DNA from: an uncultured Candidatus Nitrosopelagicus sp.
GTDB taxonomy: Archaea; Thermoproteota; Nitrososphaeria; Nitrososphaerales; Nitrosopumilaceae
Assembly: GCA_964539205.1 (NCBI GenBank)
Contig: CAZIHG010000019.1
Span: forward strand, 1-38,267
DNA: 38,267 nt
Direction of reading: 5' to 3'
Each line of letters begins with the position of its first letter. Position 1 is the first letter of the stretch. A program made the translations under genes and the position numbers. This document shows, piece by piece, positions 26,082 through 37,909 of the stretch. The notes under the pieces are model-generated. The model saw only the letters and a list, made by a program, of their open reading frames with translations, made no database searches and was not told where the DNA came from.

Positions 26082-26909
26082 ATGACAATTAATCTCTTTG
26101 AGATGCTTATGTGGACATTTCGTCGTAACGAAAATGACGTTGTCAATCTTTACGATTCATTATCACCAATTATGCAATTATCAACTGGTGGCGAAATGCT
26201 CAATTTTGGTTTGTGGGATGAATCTACAAATACACCACTTGAGGCTCAAATGAAATTATGCGATGCAACAGGAAAAATGGCAAATTTATCAAATGTGGTA
26301 TCATTGATAGATGTTGGAAGTGGGATTTTAGGACCCGCAAAAAAATGGCATTTGGATTATCCAAATTTGACAATTTCTGCCGTAAACATAAATTTTAACC
26401 AATTAAAAAACTCAAAATCAGATTACGTAGCAAAATTAAATTCTACGTCAAGATTTTTACCTTTTGCTGATAACATAATTGATCGAGTAATCGCATTGGA
26501 ATCTGCACAACACTTTAGACCACTTGAAGATTTTCTTGCAGAATCAAAAAGGGTTCTAAAGGATGATGGTGTACTTGTTATGGCTATCCCAGTGGTTAAT
26601 GACAAATCATCTGGACTACTTGATTTGGGAATATTGTCGTTTACATGGTCATCAGAGCATTATACATATGAATCGGTCAGTTCAAAAATTAGTAATATAG
26701 GATTTAAGATTTTGGAATCACAAAATTTAGGATTAAATGTTTATGTTCCTTTAGCAGATTATTATTTCAAACATAGAAATGAATTACAAGAAAAAATTAA
26801 AACCAAATATTCTTCATCCACTGAAAAAATTCTTTTTAGTTCTTTGAAAAAAATGAAACAGATGTCAGAATTAGGATTAATTGATTATGTACTTCTAAAA
26901 TGTGCATAA
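26082..26909 (+). CDS. Class I SAM-dependent methyltransferase (sterol/tocopherol/EryG-RebM-like)
   Basis: LNFGLW...LEAQ, motif I LIDVGSGILG, LPFADN..DRVIALESAQHF, ESKRVLK.DG. Confidence 0.88.
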   Translation: MTINLFEMLMWTFRRNENDVVNLYDSLSPIMQLSTGGEMLNFGLWDESTNTPLEAQMKLCDATGKMANLSNVVSLIDVGSGILGPAKKWHLDYPNLTISAVNINFNQLKNSKSDYVAKLNSTSRFLPFADNIIDRVIALESAQHFRPLEDFLAESKRVLKDDGVLVMAIPVVNDKSSGLLDLGILSFTWSSEHYTYESVSSKISNIGFKILESQNLGLNVYVPLADYYFKHRNELQEKIKTKYSSSTEKILFSSLKKMKQMSELGLIDYVLLKCA

Positions 26910-26911
26910 TT

Positions 26912-26946
26912 AGCACTAGTTTATAATTTTATCACTAGTTTATATT
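26912..26946 (+). promoter_or_regulatory. Tandem CACTAG-TTTATA repeat (operator or BRE-TATA), site A
   Basis: CACTAGTTTATA at 26914-26925 and 26933-26944 (19-bp period). Confidence 0.6.
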
Positions 26947-26958
26947 ATATTACGGCAT

Positions 26959-27204
26959 ATGAGTAGTATGGGAGCATCATGTAGAGGAATATGTGTGCTG
27001 GAAAGCATAACTAAGGTACCAAATTCACAAAAATATCAGTTTGGATTAAAACGTTGTAGTTGGTGTGAAGTATGGCTTGATACTAACGACATAAGGTGTA
27101 CTTGCTGCAAGATGATTTTGAGAACAAAATCACGAAATAAGAAAAAATTAAGAGTAAATCCCAATATAGGAAAATTTGGAGATAATACATCGATTACGGC
27201 ATAA
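26959..27204 (+). CDS. Small Cys-rich zinc-finger protein
   Basis: CRGIC...KRCSWCEVW...RCTCCKMILRTK. Confidence 0.8.
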   Translation: MSSMGASCRGICVLESITKVPNSQKYQFGLKRCSWCEVWLDTNDIRCTCCKMILRTKSRNKKKLRVNPNIGKFGDNTSITA

Positions 27205-27235
27205 AATATTTCAGTAACAAATATGTCTGATTAAA

Positions 27236-28579
27236 ATGAGATCATCTAAAAACCCACAAGTGTTAATCATTGGAGCAGGTGTGGGTGGTTTATCTATTGG
27301 AACTTTACTTGTTAACGAAGGATACTCTGTTAGAATTCTTGAAAAATCTGATGGATTGGGTGGCAGAACTAAATCCATCAAATTCAAAAACCACATACTA
27401 GATAATGGATTTCATATAATGCCATTCTATAAAAAATCTGCAATTTATGATGTTCTTAAATCGGCTAATATTGTACAAAACTTGAAATTAGCAATTGTTG
27501 ATAGAATTGCATTCTTCGATGGTGACTTCCACACATATCCTAAAGGTGTTATGGATATTCTAGGAATGTCTTTGTTACCATTAAAGAGTAGATTCTCTCT
27601 CCTGAAAATTTTACTTCCAATGGCATTTACTAGTATGGAAAAAGCAGAACAAATGGATCAAACACCATTAACCGAAGTCACCAAGAAACTTGATAGTCAT
27701 TCAAAAAGATTTTTTGACGCAGTATGCATGCTTGCATTTGCTGATACAGCTGATCATATCTCATTAGGCGAGTTTGCAAGGACAATAATACGTGCTAATC
27801 CATTCAAAGGAGGTACAAGTGAATTTGCATATCCTGATATGGGTGGCTATGATAAAATTTCACAGGTTATGGGTGATTATATCACTCAGAATGGTTCTAC
27901 TATCAATGTTAATACTGCTGTGAAAAAAGTCCTCGTAAATGATTCTCGTGTGACAGGTATTTTACTGTCAGATGGAACTACTATAGAATCTAATTGTGTA
28001 ATAATTTCATATCCTGTATATCACGCAATAAACCAATTATTTGATAATAATGTATTTGATGATGGTTTTATCAAACACATAAACAGACTTAACAAAACTA
28101 CTTCAGTCGTTGAGGTTCATTTTGCATTATCAAAAAAACTTGATACTAGGCAAGTAGTTTTTCCAGTTGGAGATTATATCTCAAAAGGAATATTTTTCAT
28201 ATCCAATATAACACCAAGTGTTTCACCAAAAGGCGAACATCTCATAATTGTTGGTACACCAGTAAAACCAGAAGATACTGATAATCCACAAAAAATTAAA
28301 GAAATTGTTTTCAATATGAAAAAAGAACTGTCGAAAATTTATTCTGATTTTGATGATGCATTATTATGGGAGAGACCCATGGCATGGAAACTAGTTGAAG
28401 CTGTTGTCAAAGAACCTGGTCTAGTTTGGAAAAATAAGATGCCACACTCAGTTTCACAGGTAGAAGGCTTATTTTTTGTTGGTGATTCTACTGTAAGTTA
28501 TGGGATTGGAACAGATTCTGCAGCGCATAGTTCAATTTTAGCTCATCCAGAAATCATAAAATTTCTAAATGTTAAGTAG
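27236..28579 (+). CDS. Phytoene desaturase/HpnE-like FAD-dependent oxidoreductase
   Basis: IIGAGVGGL, EKSDGLGGR, LDNGFHI, YP.MGG, C-terminal VEGLFFVGDS. Confidence 0.85.
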   Translation: MRSSKNPQVLIIGAGVGGLSIGTLLVNEGYSVRILEKSDGLGGRTKSIKFKNHILDNGFHIMPFYKKSAIYDVLKSANIVQNLKLAIVDRIAFFDGDFHTYPKGVMDILGMSLLPLKSRFSLLKILLPMAFTSMEKAEQMDQTPLTEVTKKLDSHSKRFFDAVCMLAFADTADHISLGEFARTIIRANPFKGGTSEFAYPDMGGYDKISQVMGDYITQNGSTINVNTAVKKVLVNDSRVTGILLSDGTTIESNCVIISYPVYHAINQLFDNNVFDDGFIKHINRLNKTTSVVEVHFALSKKLDTRQVVFPVGDYISKGIFFISNITPSVSPKGEHLIIVGTPVKPEDTDNPQKIKEIVFNMKKELSKIYSDFDDALLWERPMAWKLVEAVVKEPGLVWKNKMPHSVSQVEGLFFVGDSTVSYGIGTDSAAHSSILAHPEIIKFLNVK

Positions 28580-29009
28580 ATTTAGATTTTGCATAGTTAA
28601 CAAATTCATCCATAACCATATTCATATTCTCCTCAATTTTTCTTTTAGCAAACTTTGCCAAAAATTTCAGACCTCCATGCAATTTTAAATCTACGGTTAT
28701 CGTAAGTTTCGTTTTTTCACCAAATTTTTCGTATTTTTCATCGAATACAGTGCCACTAGCTTTTCCATCCAGCATTTTAATGATATGTCTTTGAGGTTTT
28801 TCTATTACATGTTCTGTCATTACATTAATAGTTCTACCAAGAAACTCAAGTCTTTCTTGAATTTTTGTAGCATTACCATTTCTTTCAATTATTTTTATCT
28901 CTTTAAAATAATCTGGTAAAATTTTTGTAAAGTTTTCATAATCAGTGCTTATTTGAAAAATTAGTTCTCTATTTACATCAACAGTTTTTGTAAATTCAAA
29001 TTTTGTCAT
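28572..29009 (-). CDS. SRPBCC/START (Coq10/polyketide-cyclase-like) ligand-binding protein
   Basis: TVDVNRELIFQISTDYENFTKILP, beta strands, long C-terminal helix. Confidence 0.85.
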   Translation of the reverse strand: MTKFEFTKTVDVNRELIFQISTDYENFTKILPDYFKEIKIIERNGNATKIQERLEFLGRTINVMTEHVIEKPQRHIIKMLDGKASGTVFDEKYEKFGEKTKLTITVDLKLHGGLKFLAKFAKRKIEENMNMVMDEFVNYAKSKST

Positions 29010-29042: not shown

Positions 29043-29100
29043 TATACTAGAAGCAAATCTTGGCACTAGTGGTGTCCATAGGCACTATCCATATATATAT
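29043..29100. promoter_or_regulatory. Three-copy (G/T)(G/A)(C/T)ACTA(G/T) array in a divergent promoter, site B
   Basis: TATACTAG 29043, GGCACTAG 29062, GGCACTAT 29081 (19-bp period), then ATATATATAT at 29091. Confidence 0.6.
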
Positions 29101-29121: not shown

Positions 29122-30093
29122 ATGAAGATGTTTTTCGCGGTAATTGCGAGCCTTTTACTTCTAGCTACAGTTGTTACAAATGCAGAGGCTGCAGGCGTTC
29201 CAGCCTGGGTGAAAAACAATGCTGGTTGGTGGGCAGATGGTACTATTGGAGACTCTGACTTTATCACAGGTATCCAATATTTGATTGAAGAAGGAATAAT
29301 TACAATTCCATCAACAACCCGAAGCGCATCAACTTCAGATACTATTCCTGATTGGGTGAAAAACAATGCAGGATGGTGGTCAGACGGAACAATTTCAGAA
29401 AATGACTTTCTTAATGGAATCCAGTATTTGATTAAGATGGGCATCATGCAGGTTAGTTCTACCGCAGTAAGTGACGATATGTCATCCCACTCACAATATC
29501 AGTCATCTTCAACTGAATCTAAAGAGTCAAAATCATCATCTGGCACTGAATTAGAAAATATGTTACAAACATGTCAAGACAAAGAAACTAAAAGAGAGAT
29601 AAGAGATTGTGAAAAAGCAATAAAAGAACAGTACATTGTTGATCAATTCAAAACAATTGGTTCTATCAATCAAGTTGGTCCAATTACATATTATTATGTA
29701 GCAAATTGGCAAGAAGAATCTAGAAACACTGTAAAACAATTTAATAATGTTGCATATACAGCAACTGGTCAGGCATTAGTAAATATCAAAGTTTTAGCTG
29801 AAAATACAGGTTCATCAGATAATGTCACGATGATGTGTACTAGTCCAGCAATTTGTAATTATTCAGTATGGGATGGTGGACATAAATGGGTTAATTCTGG
29901 CTCTGACTTTACATCTGGTAATATTGTATTGAAACCAGGTCAGGATAGATTCTTGAATATACTGTGGGGACCAGCAATAGGCTATGGAAGTTATGAGGAC
30001 TTTATCTATGATTCTGGAAAGGACTATTACTTGAGAATTTCTGAACCATTTGGAAAGACAGACATACCCTTGAATTTAGTTGTAGTTCCATAG
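29122..30093 (+). CDS. Exported protein with two WWADG modules, Ser-rich linker and beta-sandwich C-terminal domain
   Basis: Signal peptide ending AEA; VPAWVKNNAGWWADG and IPDWVKNNAGWWSDG. Confidence 0.85.
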   Translation: MKMFFAVIASLLLLATVVTNAEAAGVPAWVKNNAGWWADGTIGDSDFITGIQYLIEEGIITIPSTTRSASTSDTIPDWVKNNAGWWSDGTISENDFLNGIQYLIKMGIMQVSSTAVSDDMSSHSQYQSSSTESKESKSSSGTELENMLQTCQDKETKREIRDCEKAIKEQYIVDQFKTIGSINQVGPITYYYVANWQEESRNTVKQFNNVAYTATGQALVNIKVLAENTGSSDNVTMMCTSPAICNYSVWDGGHKWVNSGSDFTSGNIVLKPGQDRFLNILWGPAIGYGSYEDFIYDSGKDYYLRISEPFGKTDIPLNLVVVP

Positions 30094-30102
30094 CATCATC
30101 CA

Positions 30103-30390
30103 ATGAACGATATTATTTGGGGCACTGCAACAAAAATTCTTTCAAACAAATCTTTTGAAATGGAAGTGACACATCAGAAAGAGGAAAACAATTCAACATA
30201 TTCAGAAAAAGAAACAATTGAATTTACAGAAACCGATATCATGAGTATTTCTACAGATGAAATTCAAAGAACAGTAGAACAAGTTGAGCAGGGCTTGAAG
30301 GACAAATTCATTAAATGTGAAATTTCTGGCAAAAATGAAAATAATGAATTAGTCTGTAAGGTTTCACATTCTGGCGCTGGTGGTTACTGA
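30103..30390 (+). CDS. Acidic hypothetical protein
   Basis: 95-aa ORF in an apparent operon; gaps of 9 bp upstream and 0 bp downstream. Confidence 0.65.
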   Translation: MNDIIWGTATKILSNKSFEMEVTHQKEENNSTYSEKETIEFTETDIMSISTDEIQRTVEQVEQGLKDKFIKCEISGKNENNELVCKVSHSGAGGY

Positions 30391-31161
30391 TTGTCAATCT
30401 GTTGGAAACCAAAGATAATTACCAATTTAGACCTACAAACTAATTATTTTGATGAATTATTATCTGGAAAGATTCCAGCAATAATTGTTCCGAAAGTACT
30501 AGATCAACAAGAATGTCAGGTTCTAGTAGATAGGATTATGTTGAATAATGAAATATCTATTGGTCTTGGTTCCACAAAAAAAATAGGTGAATCAATAAAT
30601 TCATACATTTCAAATAAGATGGAATATTTTAAAAATGTAAAGCAATCAAATCATTGTTTAGGGAAAATCTTTTCACATAATGATCCACGGGAAAAGATGT
30701 TATCAGTGATATCAGGATTATCTGGAAAAGAAATTCAGTTTGCAAAAGAAAAATCATTATCATATTCAAAAGGCATGATTAGAATATATGATCCAGGTGA
30801 TCCAGTACACGTTCATCGTGACAATGCATCATTTGAGGCAACGAATTTTTCTATTTCAACATTTTCTGAACAATTTTCAGCAGTATTACATCTACAATCG
30901 GCACGATATGGAGGTAGCCTTACTGTCTTTGATAAAATTTGGACTAGATCAGATGAAAAATTCCGTGATCCAGAATTTGGTTATTCAAATGATGTTATTG
31001 ATGGTGCATTCTGTACTTCAATTACTTGTAAACAAGGCGATCTTGTAATAATTAACCCAAATAATTATCACATAGTAAATACAGTTGAAGGTAACTTATC
31101 ACGAATCACGTTTGGATTTTTTTTTGGGCATGGTAATTCATATTTATCCGCATGGTCATAA
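30391..31161 (+). CDS. 2OG-Fe(II) oxygenase
   Basis: IRIY...HVHRD (HxD), SAVLHLQ...GGSL, GDLVIIN...YH.V, 2OG-binding SRIT, C-terminal LSAWS. Confidence 0.85.
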   Translation: MSICWKPKIITNLDLQTNYFDELLSGKIPAIIVPKVLDQQECQVLVDRIMLNNEISIGLGSTKKIGESINSYISNKMEYFKNVKQSNHCLGKIFSHNDPREKMLSVISGLSGKEIQFAKEKSLSYSKGMIRIYDPGDPVHVHRDNASFEATNFSISTFSEQFSAVLHLQSARYGGSLTVFDKIWTRSDEKFRDPEFGYSNDVIDGAFCTSITCKQGDLVIINPNNYHIVNTVEGNLSRITFGFFFGHGNSYLSAWS

Positions 31162-31494
31162 TTATTCAAAAAATATCTCCATAGTATCAAGTCCAGCATG
31201 CTTGTTTATGATATCGTTAAAAATAATATCAGATTCAATCTCTAGTCGTTCTGATTTACCATCATAATATAGGTGATCCTCAACATAAATTCCACTCCTT
31301 GCTGATATCCTCAAAAGCATGTTTTGATTTTTTACGCCAATTATTTGGAATGGTAATTTGATAAAGCATTTGTCGCTATTTGCTTTCACTATTACATCAT
31401 ATTTTTTCTCATGTAACTCAATTTGACCATCAAGATATGTACCTTTGAAATTTAATATCAGAATTTTACCCTTTATTGGTATTTTATATTTCAT
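31162..31494 (-). CDS. Hypothetical protein
   Basis: 110-aa ORF abutting the oxygenase stop codon. Confidence 0.6.
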   Translation of the reverse strand: MKYKIPIKGKILILNFKGTYLDGQIELHEKKYDVIVKANSDKCFIKLPFQIIGVKNQNMLLRISARSGIYVEDHLYYDGKSERLEIESDIIFNDIINKHAGLDTMEIFFE

Positions 31495-31551
31495 ATTTCA
31501 TATTGTATTATATCCAATTTGTATTTAATATACATAAAAAAAAAATAACTT

Positions 31552-31559
31552 AGCACTAG
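31552..31559. promoter_or_regulatory. AGCACTAG motif in a divergent intergenic region, site C
   Basis: TTAGCACTAG is identical to the start of site A (26910-26919). Confidence 0.45.
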
Positions 31560-31605: not shown

Positions 31606-32334
31606 ATGAGGATAGTATTATTCGGTATTTTTTTGGTCATCTCTATGATTTTTTTACCATTACCTGTATTTGCTCATAAATTAATTCAAACTGATGGTAC
31701 TAATGATCAAATTGAAAGATCATTAACAATACCTGATCCAATAGTATCATGGGCGATGTATGAAAAATTGGATGGTGGTGTTTTGTATTATACATTTGAT
31801 GCAAAAAAGAATGATCGACTATACGCTAGTATTGTAATACCAAAATTAGATGGTATTGAGTATTTCGCCCCATCATTGGTATTGATGGTACCCTCTTTTT
31901 CAATTAAATTTATTGACACCATATATGATTTGGATAAAACAAATCTGGTCCCATTCGCAGTACCAGATGGTTATGATGCAATTGTGTTTGAATATGATGA
32001 TGTACTACCATCAAAGGAATTTTATGAACCATTTGGACAAATTACATATTGGGAAAGACAAGAAATTGATTTAACAATTCCAGTTGATTCAACATACTAT
32101 CTGGCAGTTTTTGATTCTGAATCACAGCATGGTAAACTTGCACTAGCTGTAGGATATGTTGAGGATTTTTCAGCATCTGACTTTGTCACAGTTTTACCAG
32201 CTTCATGGTTCGAATCAAGATTCTTTGTAGAAGATTATGCTACACCCGTTCTAGTTTCGATTATACTCCTACTAATTGTTACCACTATTGGGGTATTTAC
32301 TTATAAAAAATTCAAAAAGAAATTAACTTCCTAA
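31606..32334 (+). CDS. Exported protein with C-terminal membrane anchor
   Basis: Signal peptide ending VFA followed by His; EFYEPFGQ..Y; C-terminal TM + KKFKKK. Confidence 0.8.
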   Translation: MRIVLFGIFLVISMIFLPLPVFAHKLIQTDGTNDQIERSLTIPDPIVSWAMYEKLDGGVLYYTFDAKKNDRLYASIVIPKLDGIEYFAPSLVLMVPSFSIKFIDTIYDLDKTNLVPFAVPDGYDAIVFEYDDVLPSKEFYEPFGQITYWERQEIDLTIPVDSTYYLAVFDSESQHGKLALAVGYVEDFSASDFVTVLPASWFESRFFVEDYATPVLVSIILLLIVTTIGVFTYKKFKKKLTS

Positions 32335-32371
32335 CTTACATCAAGTTTAAAACCACAAATGAAAAAATATT

Positions 32372-32399
32372 GGCACTAGATATACTTATTAGGCATTAT
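32372..32399 (+). promoter_or_regulatory. GGCACTAG...GGCATTAT pair flanking the TATA-like box of the B12-binding regulator, site D
   Basis: GGCACTAG 32372, ATATACTT 32380, GGCATTAT 32392 (20-bp period), start GTG 32405. Confidence 0.6.
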
Positions 32400-32404
32400 G
32401 AAGT

Positions 32405-33262
32405 GTGAAACAAGTGGTATATCTTAGGAAAAAAGCAATAAAGGGTGTAGATTACATTTATCTTGTAAAAAGTGTATGGGATAAAAAAAATAAAACGTCA
32501 AGACAGAAGACAATAAAATATCTTGGTGAATCAAGTCGAGTCTCTCGTGAGGATATACCAATGGAATATCGTAATGATCCAAAAATAACTGCATTCTTAC
32601 TAGAAAATACACCAATTAATGTGAAAAAAAAGCATGAATTAATTTCCAAGCTTCAGTCTCAACTATTTTCAAGATTAACAGAAGGTAATTTGAAAGACTC
32701 GATTATTATCTACGAATCATTTACGTCAAAATCTACAATAGACCAGTTTTATCAGAAAATAATGAATCCTGTGATGGAAAATATTGGCTTGATGTGGTCA
32801 CAAGGAAAATTATCAATTGCTACGGAACATGTATCTAGTAACACCGCCCAGAGCCTAATAAAAATAATAGCTGATAAACACAAAAAACCTAAACTCAATA
32901 GGGGTAGAATAATTATAACAACACCTGTAGGTGAGGATCATTGTCTTTCATGTAATATATTAGAATCATTCCTACTCTCTAAAGGATTTAGTACATTCAA
33001 TATTTCCCCATCTACACCAGCCGAGTCTCTTATACAGTTTGTCAAGACAGTGCAACCTACTGCAGTGTTAATTTCAATAACACTAAAAGATAACATCAAA
33101 TCTGGACAGCGTCTTGTAAAAAAGATTCGTAGTAATTATAAAAAATTACCAGTGTTTGTAGGTGGTCAAGCATTTCCAACTGGTAATAAAAATAAGTTTG
33201 ATGCTATACTGATTGAAAATACTAAGCAACTTGAACAAATACCACGGCTGCTCATAAAGTGA
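32405..33262 (+). CDS. Cobalamin-binding regulator with CarH/LitR-type signature and non-MerR N-terminal domain
   Basis: Helical cap IMNPVMENIGLMW-SQGKLSIAT-EH (W131-x9-E141H142); Rossmann domain TPVGEDH (E177-x-H179), ISIT, VFVGGQA; basic beta-rich N terminus YIYLVKSVWDK...RQKTIKYLG. Confidence 0.85.
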   Translation: MKQVVYLRKKAIKGVDYIYLVKSVWDKKNKTSRQKTIKYLGESSRVSREDIPMEYRNDPKITAFLLENTPINVKKKHELISKLQSQLFSRLTEGNLKDSIIIYESFTSKSTIDQFYQKIMNPVMENIGLMWSQGKLSIATEHVSSNTAQSLIKIIADKHKKPKLNRGRIIITTPVGEDHCLSCNILESFLLSKGFSTFNISPSTPAESLIQFVKTVQPTAVLISITLKDNIKSGQRLVKKIRSNYKKLPVFVGGQAFPTGNKNKFDAILIENTKQLEQIPRLLIK

Positions 33263-33513
33263 CATTTACAGGCAAAATGATATCATTTCCAAAGAATGTA
33301 TTTGGCGCATTTGGTGTTCTGTTTATAATTTCAGGTGTGATTATTCCAATTCAAAATTTGATAGTCTGGGGTCCAGAATTCGTTCTGTGGTTTCTATCTT
33401 CACCCGAGTTCACTGCGGAAAAACTCAGTATAGGTGTGATTGGATTAGGTTTTGTTATGATTGTATATGGGAAAAAACACGATCATCGTTTAAACAATAA
33501 TAAATTATTCTAA
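33259..33513 (+). CDS. Small two-TM membrane protein translationally coupled to the B12 regulator
   Basis: GTGA start/stop overlap at 33259-33262; two hydrophobic segments. An alternative ATG lies 6 codons downstream. Confidence 0.65.
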   Translation: MTFTGKMISFPKNVFGAFGVLFIISGVIIPIQNLIVWGPEFVLWFLSSPEFTAEKLSIGVIGLGFVMIVYGKKHDHRLNNNKLF

Positions 33514-34167: not shown

Positions 34168-34217
34168 AATTGAATTAAATTGTATTGATTTATAATTTCT
34201 TTAGTATTTTTTATATT

Positions 34218-35318
34218 ATGCTTGAAAATTTACTTGGTAAATCCACTGCAATTGACAACGCAATTTCTGGAAAGGAACTAACATTTGATGATGGAATAGA
34301 ATTAATGGGTAATGATAATCTTCATGTTTTAGGTGCTGTAGCAGATCTATCTAGACAAAAAACAATCGGTAATACTGTTAGTTTCACCTCATCATATTAC
34401 ATGAATTATACCAATCTATGTGCTGCAAGTTGTCAAATGTGTGCATTTTATCGAAAAGGTGATGAAGATGATGCATACACACTTACACCTGAACAGATTG
34501 AGAAACGTGTTGCAGCAGCTAAACAACTAGGTGCAACTGAAGTTCATATTGTTGGTGGATTCCATCCTGATCTACAGTTAGAGTATTACGAGCAAATGAT
34601 GACAATTATCAAGGAGCATCATTCCGAATTAACAGTTAAGGCATTTACTGCAGCAGAAATTTTCTATTTATCTAAACTGACAAAAAACTCTGTTAAAGAA
34701 ATTCTTTCACGTCTAAAAAATGCAGGATTAGATACCATGCCAGGTGGTGGTGCAGAACTTTTTCATCCTGGTATAAGAGATAAAATAGTTCGTGGAAAAT
34801 GTACTGGTCAGCAATGGTTGGATACTATTAAGCAAGCACATGATTTAGGTATTAAAAGTAATGTAACAATGCTTTATGGTCACATAGAAAAACCAGAACA
34901 TATAGTTGATCATCTTATCAAAATTCGTGAATTACAAAAAAAGACCAATGGCTTCCTTACATTCATACCATTAAAATTTAGTCTAGACAATACAGAATTG
35001 GAAAAAGATCATTTAGTAGATCATGAGTGTTCATCAATTTATGATCTTAAAGTAATTGCATTATCACGTTTAATGCTAACAAACGTTCTTGACAACATCT
35101 CAGTTTATTGGGTGGCATATGGTCAGAAATTAGCACAAGTTGCATTATCGCATGGTGGTAGTGATCTTGTTGGAACTGCATTTTCTGAGGAAATTTACCG
35201 TGCTGCAGGAAAACCAACTAATTCTTCATTAATTGAACTTGCTACACTAGTAAAAGAAATTGGTAGAAATCCAGTACAACGTGATACATATTTTAATACG
35301 ATTCAGAAATTTAACTAG
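34218..35318 (+). CDS. mqnE: Radical SAM aminofutalosine synthase (CofH/MqnE family)
   Basis: NYTNLCAASCQMCAF (CxxxCxxC), EVHIVGGFHP, KAFTAAEI, MPGGGAE, TMLYGHIE, EEIY.AAG. ATG 34218 preferred over TTG 34185. MqnC/CofH not fully excluded. Confidence 0.82.
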   Translation: MLENLLGKSTAIDNAISGKELTFDDGIELMGNDNLHVLGAVADLSRQKTIGNTVSFTSSYYMNYTNLCAASCQMCAFYRKGDEDDAYTLTPEQIEKRVAAAKQLGATEVHIVGGFHPDLQLEYYEQMMTIIKEHHSELTVKAFTAAEIFYLSKLTKNSVKEILSRLKNAGLDTMPGGGAELFHPGIRDKIVRGKCTGQQWLDTIKQAHDLGIKSNVTMLYGHIEKPEHIVDHLIKIRELQKKTNGFLTFIPLKFSLDNTELEKDHLVDHECSSIYDLKVIALSRLMLTNVLDNISVYWVAYGQKLAQVALSHGGSDLVGTAFSEEIYRAAGKPTNSSLIELATLVKEIGRNPVQRDTYFNTIQKFN

Positions 35319-37078: not shown

Positions 37079-37909
37079 TCATAATTGCTCAGATATTTTT
37101 AATTCAAAATCAGAAACAAGATTTTTTTGTTTTGCCATATCAAATAACGTTCTGATAGATTTCTCTCCAGATTCACCCATATCAACTGTTACAGGATTGA
37201 CATACATGAGAACAAATTTTTCAATCAGATCACGAGATTTTCCTCTGCTATATTGCATCGCATATTCTAACGCCTCATCTTTATGATCAAGTGCATATTT
37301 TATTGATTCCTGTAGATGTAAGTCAAATTTTTTGATAGTTTGTACATCAAATTTATTGCTCATAACATTAATTCCCAATGGCACTGGTAATCCATTTGTT
37401 TGTTCATGCCACCATTTTCCAACATCTAGAATTTTCATTACACCCTCTTGTTCAAATGACAATTGAGTTTCATGAATAACTAATCCTGCATCTACATCAC
37501 CATCCCTTACAGCCTTTGGTATATCACTAAAGTTCATTTCAACATAATCAAATTTACCAATCATCAATTGTAGTAATAGAAATGCTGACGTCATTTTTCC
37601 CGGAATTGCTATTTTCAATGTCTTTAGCTCATCAATTGTTATTGGTCTCATTGCAGTAACAATAGGACCGTATCCAATTCCGAAACTGCCGCCACTCCTT
37701 AAGATTGTATAATTTGGGATATACGCACAGGCATGGACTGATACTGCAGTAACATCCAATTCTGGGCTGGTCGCCTTTTTGTTAAGATTTTCAATATCTT
37801 CTATAACATGTGTGACAGTAAAGTCATTAGATTCTACTAAATTAGTGAACATTGCATAAAACATGAATGCATCGTCCGAATCAGGTGTATGTCCTACAGA
37901 AATATTCAC
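37079..37909 (-). CDS. mqnD: 1,4-dihydroxy-6-naphthoate synthase
   Basis: GHTPDSDDAFMFYA, DIENLN, GGSFG.GYGP, AIPG.MTSA, GLVIHE, LPVPLG, MYVN. Confidence 0.9.
   Translation of the reverse strand: MNISVGHTPDSDDAFMFYAMFTNLVESNDFTVTHVIEDIENLNKKATSPELDVTAVSVHACAYIPNYTILRSGGSFGIGYGPIVTAMRPITIDELKTLKIAIPGKMTSAFLLLQLMIGKFDYVEMNFSDIPKAVRDGDVDAGLVIHETQLSFEQEGVMKILDVGKWWHEQTNGLPVPLGINVMSNKFDVQTIKKFDLHLQESIKYALDHKDEALEYAMQYSRGKSRDLIEKFVLMYVNPVTVDMGESGEKSIRTLFDMAKQKNLVSDFELKISEQL

Follow-up and report, generated by a model that had tools for sequence, protein, structure and literature searches.

Introduction

The closest described systems to the one treated here are the B12-dependent photoreceptors CarH and class I LitR, namely Thermus thermophilus CarH (TtCarH, PDB 5C8A/5C8D/5C8E), Myxococcus CarH and Bacillus megaterium LitR. 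We report on a putative regulator encoded in a 38,267-nucleotide stretch of DNA (the window; contig CAZIHG010000019.1, positions 1 to 38,267, of GenBank assembly GCA_964539205.1) from an uncultured Candidatus Nitrosopelagicus sp. of the archaeal family Nitrosopumilaceae. The protein, an open reading frame (ORF) at 32405-33262 on the forward strand, shares with CarH and LitR a four-helix cap plus Rossmann B12 module, the W-x9-EH motif, a putative base-off His ligand and a predicted head-to-tail dimer, and its family shares with them direct-repeat sites at promoters and a linkage to carotenoid and photolyase genes. This linkage holds in relatives, not in the window. Unlike CarH and LitR, the protein has a beta-sheet N-terminal domain (N domain) and no MerR winged helix, lacks His132 and the R176-D201 pair, and belongs to archaeal hosts with promoters built of a TATA box and a B recognition element (BRE). 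Its putative sites, TTRGCACTAG at 19-20 or 33 bp, also differ as a consensus from the tandem 11-bp nnnnTnnACAn of CarH and LitR. Since the defining MerR domain is absent, it would work like CarH but stand outside the CarH/MerR family.

CtMerR from Chloracidobacterium (PDB 8JBS/8JBT) shares the CarH-type B12 module and, according to part of PMC11796333, is light-responsive and dissociates without His132, having Arg there; it differs in its MerR-type DNA-binding domain and in being bacterial. The photocobilins SasPcob and AbDPcob (PDB 8J2W/8J2X/8J2Y) give the best sequence and structure matches of the B12 module. With them the window protein would share the lack of a bis-His light state, and with SasPcob a non-Gly residue at ExHxxG, but photocobilins have a C-terminal biliverdin-binding globin and no N-terminal DNA-binding domain, whereas the window protein ends after the Rossmann fold without such a globin. 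A much weaker match (E 0.0019) is AerR of Rhodobacter (PDB 7TE2), a B12-binding regulator of the same fold that differs in being a stand-alone B12 domain acting through CrtJ. The N domain, finally, is homologous to the first 42 residues of an IS1634-family transposase; unlike that transposase, the window protein has no DDE domain, its gene is found in one copy per genome, and its descent is largely vertical within the ammonia oxidisers.

Here we argue, at a probability of about 0.6, that the gene encodes an adenosylcobalamin (AdoCbl)-dependent, light-released regulator: a dark oligomer would sit on paired boxes and block the pre-initiation complex, and light would release it.

Results and Discussion

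The ORF comprises 285 amino acids from a GTG at 32405. Homologues begin at the codon for V4 (GTG at 32414), which is probably the true start and gives 282 amino acids. Residue numbers follow the longer ORF, native numbering being 3 lower; because homologues start at V4, the agreement of W131, E141 and H142 with TtCarH numbering is a coincidence.

By sequence and structural model, the B12 module is of CarH type. Pfam B12-binding_2 (residues 104-154, E 2.8e-7) and B12-binding (168-259, E 1.2e-8) match above cut-off. The top NCBIfam match is CarH (NF052513, E 7.5e-17, residues 82-278, below cut-off), followed by weaker matches to the corrinoid protein MtgC (2.3e-9) and to MetH (4.5e-5), and a PDB sequence search gave photocobilin at 1.2e-11 and TtCarH at 1.8e-9 versus MetH at 1.3e-7. 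An initial annotation, made from the letters alone, had read W131, S132, I138, E141, H142, E177-D178-H179 and C180-L-S-C183, all of which stand exactly as it gave them, and had suggested an AlphaFold and Foldseek check of the module. The AlphaFold model (predicted local distance difference test, pLDDT, 88.7) finds only photocobilin, TtCarH or CtMerR among the Foldseek matches listed to rank 50. The annotation was also right that there is no MerR helix-turn-helix (Pfam gives neither this nor any other helix-turn-helix match) and that a CarH-type adenosyl pocket joined to a non-MerR N-terminal domain makes a distinct B12-sensor architecture.

W-x9-EH marks the adenosyl pocket, which MetH lacks (PMC8156234). 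As 256 of 263 family sequences keep it, in a set weighted to close relatives, it is not there by chance. Three of the four light-response motifs of SignatureFinder (set out in part of PMC11796333) are present: G128-L-M-W131 (GxxW), E141-H142 (EH) and G176-E-D-H179 (GxxH). The longer motif D/ExHxx[G/P]-x41-SxT-x22-27-GG, taken from part of PMC9304148, lies at 177-254 with exact spacing, and its sole deviation is a Ser at the G/P position (S182). Among 260 family sequences this position holds S in 121, G in 70, A in 48, P in 20 and V in one, and the validated photoreceptor SasPcob aligns with Pro there, so the position is not diagnostic. The initial annotation had singled out this EDHCLS reading and the missing His132; both are as it said, but mean less than it implied, and we reject S182 or S132 as a loss of function.

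The B12 module is predicted to form a homodimer, with a score of 0.72 versus 0.00 for the best control, on a mark reached by 20 of 30 solved pairs and one of 23 single chains. Between runs, at least 97% of contacts recur, with a pLDDT of at least 86, and the predicted apo interface is head-to-tail, with the EH helix on the 195-202 loop; the pass may stem from likeness to solved CarH dimers. C183 is widely conserved among ammonia-oxidiser members and C180 is confined to the window protein's own subclade. The resulting C180-x-x-C183 (window 32939-32953), directly after the His ligand and in a subclade where no photolyase was found, is a possible redox or metal site.

Automatic annotation offers another identity. 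Several members are named 'methanogenic corrinoid protein MtbC1' in IMG, and there are weaker hidden Markov model matches to MtgC, MtbC and MtaC, as expected of a methyltransferase corrinoid protein. However, all corrinoid models score far below cut-off and below CarH (the best reaches 37 bits against a cut-off of 370), the closest structure matches are photoreceptors, and no corrinoid methyltransferase is among the recurring neighbours. We regard this identity as extremely improbable and reject it; closest homology to such proteins would also have spoken against the initial annotation. In IMG two partial members bear the name 'MerR family transcriptional regulator, light-induced transcriptional regulator', and the CarH likeness is thereby already on record as a label.

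The N domain is likely a new beta-sheet DNA-binding domain, as its composition and conservation suggest. Residues 4-66 are modelled (pLDDT 90) as a three-stranded antiparallel sheet with short helices, the first 42 residues hold 12 K/R versus 3 D/E, and ten positions (R, K, Y, Y, V, W, Q, Y, G, P) are invariant in 41 diverse members from two phyla. The window's N domain has no Pfam or NCBIfam match and 0 matches in a PDB sequence search, and Foldseek found nothing at E 0.001 against PDB and viral models. With VIA-align the best Z was 4.1; the arm-type integrase domain (3jtz) scored Z 2.8 (root-mean-square deviation 3.9, 48 aligned), which is not above background. The best ESM Atlas match, at 0.81, has no name attached. 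These failed structure matches do not show a new fold.

An N-domain profile search gave 708 matches, of which 150 were listed. Among the 47 listed proteins of at least 250 residues, 44 have the B12 module; the other three include an IS1634 transposase and an AbiEii protein, and among the shorter ones are HNH nucleases, proteins of about 160-185 amino acids of no known family, and stand-alone proteins of 50-60 residues. The loci L170-L197, in records mostly of Woesearchaeota, Nanoarchaeota and Methanosarcinales, have the N module without the B12 domain, at the head of other proteins that form an unnamed family. The initial annotation had seen a likeness of the first ~45 residues to the N termini of IS1634/IS4-like transposases, and for IS1634 this likeness is real: the profile matches transposase residues 1-41 at E 1.6e-10 (NF033559 is above cut-off on the transposase), and residues 1-42 of the transposase P0233 align at 45% identity with an hhalign value of 98.2%. 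P0291 has a homologous module too, and a search with the transposase's first 42 residues returned the transposase itself and one relative only. The further suggestion of a domesticated domain fares less well. Only one recognised transposase is among the 150 matches listed of 708, and domestication is not shown because the module is promiscuous, heading HNH nucleases, AbiEii and small proteins as well. We reject an active transposase, with no DDE match in Pfam or NCBIfam.

A match at E 1e-25 or better, nearly always full-length, was found in 98 of 200 Nitrosopumilaceae genomes (the carriers), in 18 of the family's 25 genera and patchily within them. The protein family also appears in records titled Nitrososphaeraceae, Nitrosocaldus, Thermoplasmata, Methanomassiliicoccales and Marine Group III. 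The N domain is single-copy in 24 of 25 positive genomes; none of 213 genomes sampled from the rest of the phylum, beyond the Nitrosopumilaceae, gave it, yet it is patchily present there (record-titled loci and genome G059). An initial locus scan with a single protein as query gave no match. In a midpoint-rooted tree of 52 hand-picked rows, the ammonia-oxidiser members form one clade (100/100), and H-C-x-[S/P/A]-C is restricted to the subclade (99/97) that holds the window protein. Descent within the ammonia oxidisers is largely vertical, judging by this tree. Divergent or partial copies occur: a second copy at L064:9502-10365 (G234) has lost W-x9-EH and lies near a photolyase, another at L091:3046-3639 (G105) lies beside DPRP, and L072:6957-7232 (G126) is a 91-residue regulator fragment near a photolyase.

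A conserved direct repeat lies upstream of the regulator gene. In the 853,748 bases of the host genome, exact TTRGCACTAG occurs four times, at 26910, 29060, 31550 and 32370 of the window; each copy is intergenic and all four lie within 5.5 kb upstream of the regulator. The strict core TRGCACTA is found within 70 nt of the regulator start in 64 of 78 ammonia-oxidiser loci (one duplicate may remain among the 78, and in several of the 14 loci without it the gene is internal to an operon). Carriers have 2.17 box pairs per genome versus 0.41 in the 102 non-carriers, about one pair per carrier coming from the regulator's own promoter; a reversed-pattern control gave 0.57 versus 0.45. At least two pairs are present in 68 of 98 carriers versus 8 of 102 non-carriers, and no within-genus permutation in 20,000 reached the observed total. 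The set includes the unpublished G243 and G129, and the result is unchanged without them.

The geometry points to a promoter element. In the window and the larger loci L048-L092, selected around gene, photolyase or box, an ATG-ORF starts 54-59 nt after the box at 66 of 160 sites (control words 0/30, 0/29, 2/40 and 0/13), and a TATA-like word follows at +26 to +36 at 84 of 160 sites versus 4 of 112 for control words; the control word perm3, a mis-specified 5-mer with 60/1837, was excluded. In 36 of 64 anchored promoters a weaker second box follows after 18-20 nt, on the BRE position, versus 0-8 of 64 in 11 other search windows. The same box recurs in the regulator self-promoters of Nitrososphaeraceae and Nitrosocaldus. 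In Marine Group III it flanks the TATA with a 33-bp period (17 sites, spread over 13 of 16 loci), upstream of both the operon and the crtB-like gene, at loci that share few other island genes with those of ammonia oxidisers. Some counts in the host are at background: the window has 7 copies of the bare 7-mer RGCACTA where 4.1 are expected, which is no enrichment (12 of 100 shuffles reach 7), and a whole-promoter weight matrix at threshold 13 gave 17 versus 17 matches, with only the 26910 site clearly above background in the host genome.

Further boxes lie away from the regulator. The host genome's only pair outside the island, a degenerate one (G000:C40:10196-10224), is upstream of an opposite-strand 671-residue secreted protein. 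A conserved pair beside a PAC2-family gene, far from the regulator (L078:6204 in G036 and L079:6602 in G001), is also matched in G032, G029, G026 and G010, and lies ~10-13 kb from amoA in G036 and G001. At a contig end, L081:6573-6659 (G204) holds a tandem array of three near-perfect boxes at 18-19 bp spacing and a further box in reverse orientation.

Given that the box goes with the regulator into a phylum where the neighbours are different, and that there is one N-domain copy per genome, the N domain as box binder is the simplest reading; its putative binding of the box gains indirect support from the way the box tracks the gene in two phyla. AerR, by comparison, works with CrtJ as partner, and an AdoCbl or light sensor that does not bind the box could likewise act through a partner, a zinc-ribbon protein or a paralogue of transcription factor B (TFB) reading it. 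The co-variation of island genes with the regulator would suit this, as would the lack of a match between the N domain and any solved DNA-binding fold and the eight genomes with at least two box pairs and no full gene match. Yet among these eight, G094 has a split N domain (L117) and G141 and G187 are fragmented assemblies. Moreover, box and gene still occur together in Marine Group III loci, in which neither a zinc-ribbon nor a TFB homologue from the island was seen; zinc-ribbon and TFB genes each occur in only 8 of 20 family loci, and the N domain is basic, keeps its ten invariant residues across two phyla and heads DNA-acting proteins elsewhere. A partner reading the box is therefore very unlikely.

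The genes beside the regulator point to light. Class I photolyase is present in 31 of 98 carriers versus 3 of 102 non-carriers, a difference reached in one of 20,000 within-genus permutations, and 22 of the 31 have it no more than 10 kb from the regulator gene. All 8 genomes of the 200 that have a DPRP photolyase carry the regulator gene. Photolyase islands far from the regulator hold 8 boxes in G126 and 5 each in G084 and G105. The Marine Group III loci run from a TIGR01777 oxidoreductase through crtI and the regulator to a phytoene-synthase-family (crtB-like) gene; crtI passes the cut-offs of NF058655 and TIGR02734, and two of the 16 loci (L128, L158) also have a photolyase. The carotenoid operon with a box on both sides of the TATA was observed at L128:2677-8948, L131, L138, L143, L150-L153, L155, L157, L158 and L167. 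This operon is the family's clearest CarH-like context, and the locus may be the best test system. A pyrimidine-dimer glycosylase gene (PF03013) precedes the regulator in 4 of 5 Nitrosocaldus-type loci. According to part of PMC9758184, the Pseudomonas LitR region also has a photolyase, a short-chain dehydrogenase (SDR) and a flavin adenine dinucleotide (FAD) oxidoreductase.

Islands in L049, L052, L055, L058, L061, L063, L067 and L083 include a TFB paralogue, often with a box upstream, which suggests a two-tier response through an alternative basal factor. In the first five of these loci the island abuts tetrapyrrole-synthesis-like ORFs (hemA/hemB/sirC-like by eye), with no box seen before them. 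At L059:5161-7907 and L062:9974-12835 a DUF1722 gene is followed by archaeal Nre (DNA repair), beside a Peripla_BP_2 protein and inside a boxed island.

In the proposed mechanism, AdoCbl would be bound base-off on H179, with W131, E141 and H142 capping the adenosyl group. The dark AdoCbl form would be a head-to-tail oligomer with its N domains on paired boxes, spaced at 19-20 bp in ammonia oxidisers, where the weaker copy sits at the BRE position, and at 33 bp across the TATA in Marine Group III. The box-bound oligomer would block TFB, the TATA-binding protein (TBP) and RNA polymerase. Green light would cleave the Co-C bond to give hydroxo-cobalamin, no bis-His switch being involved (CtMerR and SasPcob have none either), and the oligomer would loosen. 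Protective genes would then be turned on: crtI/crtB in Marine Group III and, in ammonia oxidisers, a regulon of photolyase, DUF1722, SDR, FAD oxidoreductase and SRPBCC genes, often with a TFB paralogue. AdoCbl is plausibly available in the host, since its genome encodes CobS, a cobalamin adenosyltransferase and a methylmalonyl-CoA mutase fragment.

Several points weigh against this mechanism. Cofactor binding, photochemistry, DNA binding and regulation are all things that we infer, and the structure searches matched the N domain to no known DNA-binding fold. His follows the Trp in only 3 of 256 family sequences (the window protein has Ser132), and TtCarH H132A largely stays tetrameric in light, as part of PMC10442372 reports; validated photoreceptors carry Arg, Gln or Tyr at this position (part of PMC11796333), and SasPcob dissociates without a bis-His state (part of PMC10979010). 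The R176-D201 dimer salt bridge described for CarH (part of PMC8221060) is absent, with D178 and S203 at those positions, and is not conserved; like the His, it is widespread but not universal in CarH and class I LitR. The fourth SignatureFinder motif, GxxxP, lacks its Gly (S201-P-S-T-P205; some family members have Gly there). The genomes behind the box counts are related to one another, those Marine Group III loci hardly differ, and some of the loci had been picked by gene, photolyase or box. The photolyase link, too, has gaps. Photolyase, DPRP and DUF1722 were not found in the 71%-complete host genome, nor class I photolyase in three other genomes of the CxxC subclade (59-85% complete), and 67 of 98 carriers, including all 10 of genus g39, are without class I photolyase. 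In the window's own genus photolyase is unlinked and boxless in 4 of 4 loci, and none of the six DPRP leader promoters inspected has a box. Of 12 photolyase loci outside the genus, five have a same-strand box before the operon, five only a reverse box, which belongs to the divergent promoter, and two none.

The same protein and box could also serve another input in vivo, cobamide status or redox instead of light, most plausibly in the window's CxxC clade: AdoCbl supply, oxidative adenosyl loss or the C180-x-x-C183 pair beside the His ligand. That only this subclade has H-C-x-[S/P/A]-C and that no photolyase was found there agree with such an input, as does the shortage of photolyase among carriers at large. 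The family also lives in Nitrososphaeraceae, Nitrosocaldus and Methanomassiliicoccales, for which light exposure is not established, and the local regulon (FAD oxidoreductase, SRPBCC, 2-oxoglutarate (2OG) oxygenase, secreted protein) is not light-specific. Against it, the four exact boxes are the genome's only ones, and none is near the cobS or adenosyltransferase contigs; W-x9-EH is intact, the subclade genomes are incomplete, and photolyase, crtI/crtB and UV glycosylase were recruited independently in three lineages. We consider a cobamide or redox input unlikely.

The sign of regulation may differ as well. A light sensor could bind the box but activate in ammonia oxidisers, or combine dark repression with light activation, one state at the strong upstream box recruiting TFB and TBP to promoters with a poor BRE. 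The strong box is on the same strand as the downstream ORF in 113 of 133 intergenic sites, ~28 nt before the TATA, and this near-constant distance in ammonia oxidisers fits an activator too, counting in this respect against occlusion. Archaeal activators typically show strict spacing upstream of the TATA. Besides, 28 of 64 anchored promoters have no recognisable second box, and 8 of 20 islands have a TFB paralogue. Yet the second box lies downstream of the TATA in Marine Group III, and in the window the boxes of the regulator's own promoter stand on either side of a TATA-like element, arrangements that suit occlusion; in more than half of the anchored promoters the weak copy overlaps the BRE position, and the characterised CarH and LitR class I proteins are dark repressors. 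Activation, alone or combined with dark repression, is thus rather improbable, and dark repression with release by light stays our preferred mechanism.

The features of the window are listed in Table 1.

Table 1. The regulator gene, its domains, the boxes and the surrounding island in the window
Feature	Coordinates	Strand	Basis or remark
Regulator gene, 282 amino acids from probable start	32414..33262	+	ORF calling and homologue starts
N-terminal domain, likely DNA-binding	32414..32602	+	Model, composition, conserved residues, IS1634/HNH/AbiEii matches
Four-helix cap, G128-x-x-W131-x9-E141-H142 (CarH-type adenosyl pocket), S132 for CarH His132	32621..32881	+	Pfam, alignment, model
Rossmann B12-binding domain: G176-E177-D178-H179 (lower axial His), C180-L-S-C183, S224-x-T226, G253-G254	32906..33259	+	Pfam, motif check, model
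Boxes TTGGCACTAG and TAGGCATTA, 20 bp apart, around TATA-like TTATTA; regulator's own promoter, candidate auto-operator	32370..32398	+	Box scan
Box TTAGCACTAG, ~56 nt before ATG at 31606; shared with divergent ORF 31494-31162	31550..31559	+	Box scan
242-residue conserved membrane-anchored protein, function unassigned; candidate regulon	31606..32334	+	ORF and homologues
110-residue conserved island protein, divergent from box at 31550	31162..31494	-	ORF and homologues
Box pair TTGGCACTAG, TAGGCACTA, then TATA; between divergent SRPBCC and secreted-protein genes	29060..29087	+	Box scan
323-residue secreted protein; commonest island partner	29122..30093	+	ORF, neighbour counts; sole island gene substantially covered by RNA contigs
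95-residue conserved ORF and 2OG-Fe(II) oxygenase (WelO5-like), downstream of secreted-protein gene	30103..31161	+	Pfam
SRPBCC / polyketide-cyclase-like protein	28572..29009	-	Pfam, below cut-off
Box pair TTAGCACTAG, TTATCACTAG, 19 bp apart, then TATA; genome's best-scoring site	26910..26938	+	Box scan, weight matrix
Small Cys-rich (zinc-ribbon-like) ORF and 447-residue FAD oxidoreductase (Amino_oxidase)	26968..28579	+	Probable operon behind box 26910
84-residue membrane protein overlapping regulator stop codon; conserved neighbour	33259..33513	+	ORF and homologues

Within 10 kb of the regulator in 20 family loci, the secreted protein is found 16 times, DUF1722 11 times, photolyase 6 times, and zinc ribbon, SDR, TFB and FAD oxidoreductase 8 times each. 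Homologues of the 242-residue protein adjoin the regulator in Thermoplasmata and Methanomassiliicoccales loci too. The FAD oxidoreductase has HpnE/CrtI-like matches below cut-off, the window's only carotenoid-like link. A gene for an S-adenosylmethionine (SAM) methyltransferase with a weak cyclopropane-synthase match (window 26082-26909) abuts the island without a box upstream and is near the regulator in L048. Downstream lie an MqnE-like radical SAM gene (34185-35318) and a VitK2_biosynth gene (37079-37909; menaquinone), ordinary housekeeping and not boxed.

The host genome is marine, as are the metagenomes that make up the 19 main datasets carrying DNA of the lineage, none of which bears a depth label. 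In this incomplete genome amoA was not found and amoC only as a weak fragment; amoA is present in 4 of 4 congeners, and in the protein tree the window protein groups with members from Nitrososphaerota. Two RNA runs, available as contigs that carry no level, strand or light condition, left the regulator uncovered: one covers almost only the secreted-protein gene, the other almost nothing.

Conclusions

In the open-licence PMC and bioRxiv literature we found neither a description of this regulator family nor one of a light-sensing regulator in ammonia-oxidising archaea. The string 'archae' is absent from the main texts of the SignatureFinder and photocobilin papers (for the latter by a whole-word search, which is weak), and their supplements or network may hold archaeal members. 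The part of PMC13591554 that describes both photolyase families in marine ammonia oxidisers names no regulator, and part of PMC7435645 contributes nothing further. What the present analysis worked out is the box with its geometry, how often box, photolyase and gene occur together, and the carotenoid setting in Marine Group III.

On balance we lean towards an archaeal B12-photoreceptor family, spread across ammonia oxidisers and Thermoplasmatota, in which an undescribed beta-sheet DNA-binding module, common to IS1634 transposases and HNH nucleases, replaces MerR and would read TTRGCACTAG. It would run a carotenoid switch in Marine Group III and, in ammonia oxidisers, islands of UV repair and oxidative protection, frequently equipped with a TFB of their own. 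Marine ammonia-oxidising archaea are considered to be confined by light to depths below the photic zone (part of PMC6776035), and these archaea are implicated in global cobalamin production (part of PMC4303638); the regulator would be a dedicated light sense for photoinhibited, B12-producing nitrifiers. Our results supply a candidate light sensor, a ten-base candidate operator and a gene list for ammonia oxidisers. If the reading is true, B12 photoreception would extend to archaeal TATA/BRE promoters, a new DNA-binding domain would be defined together with its target, and a green-light switch of new specificity would be at hand.

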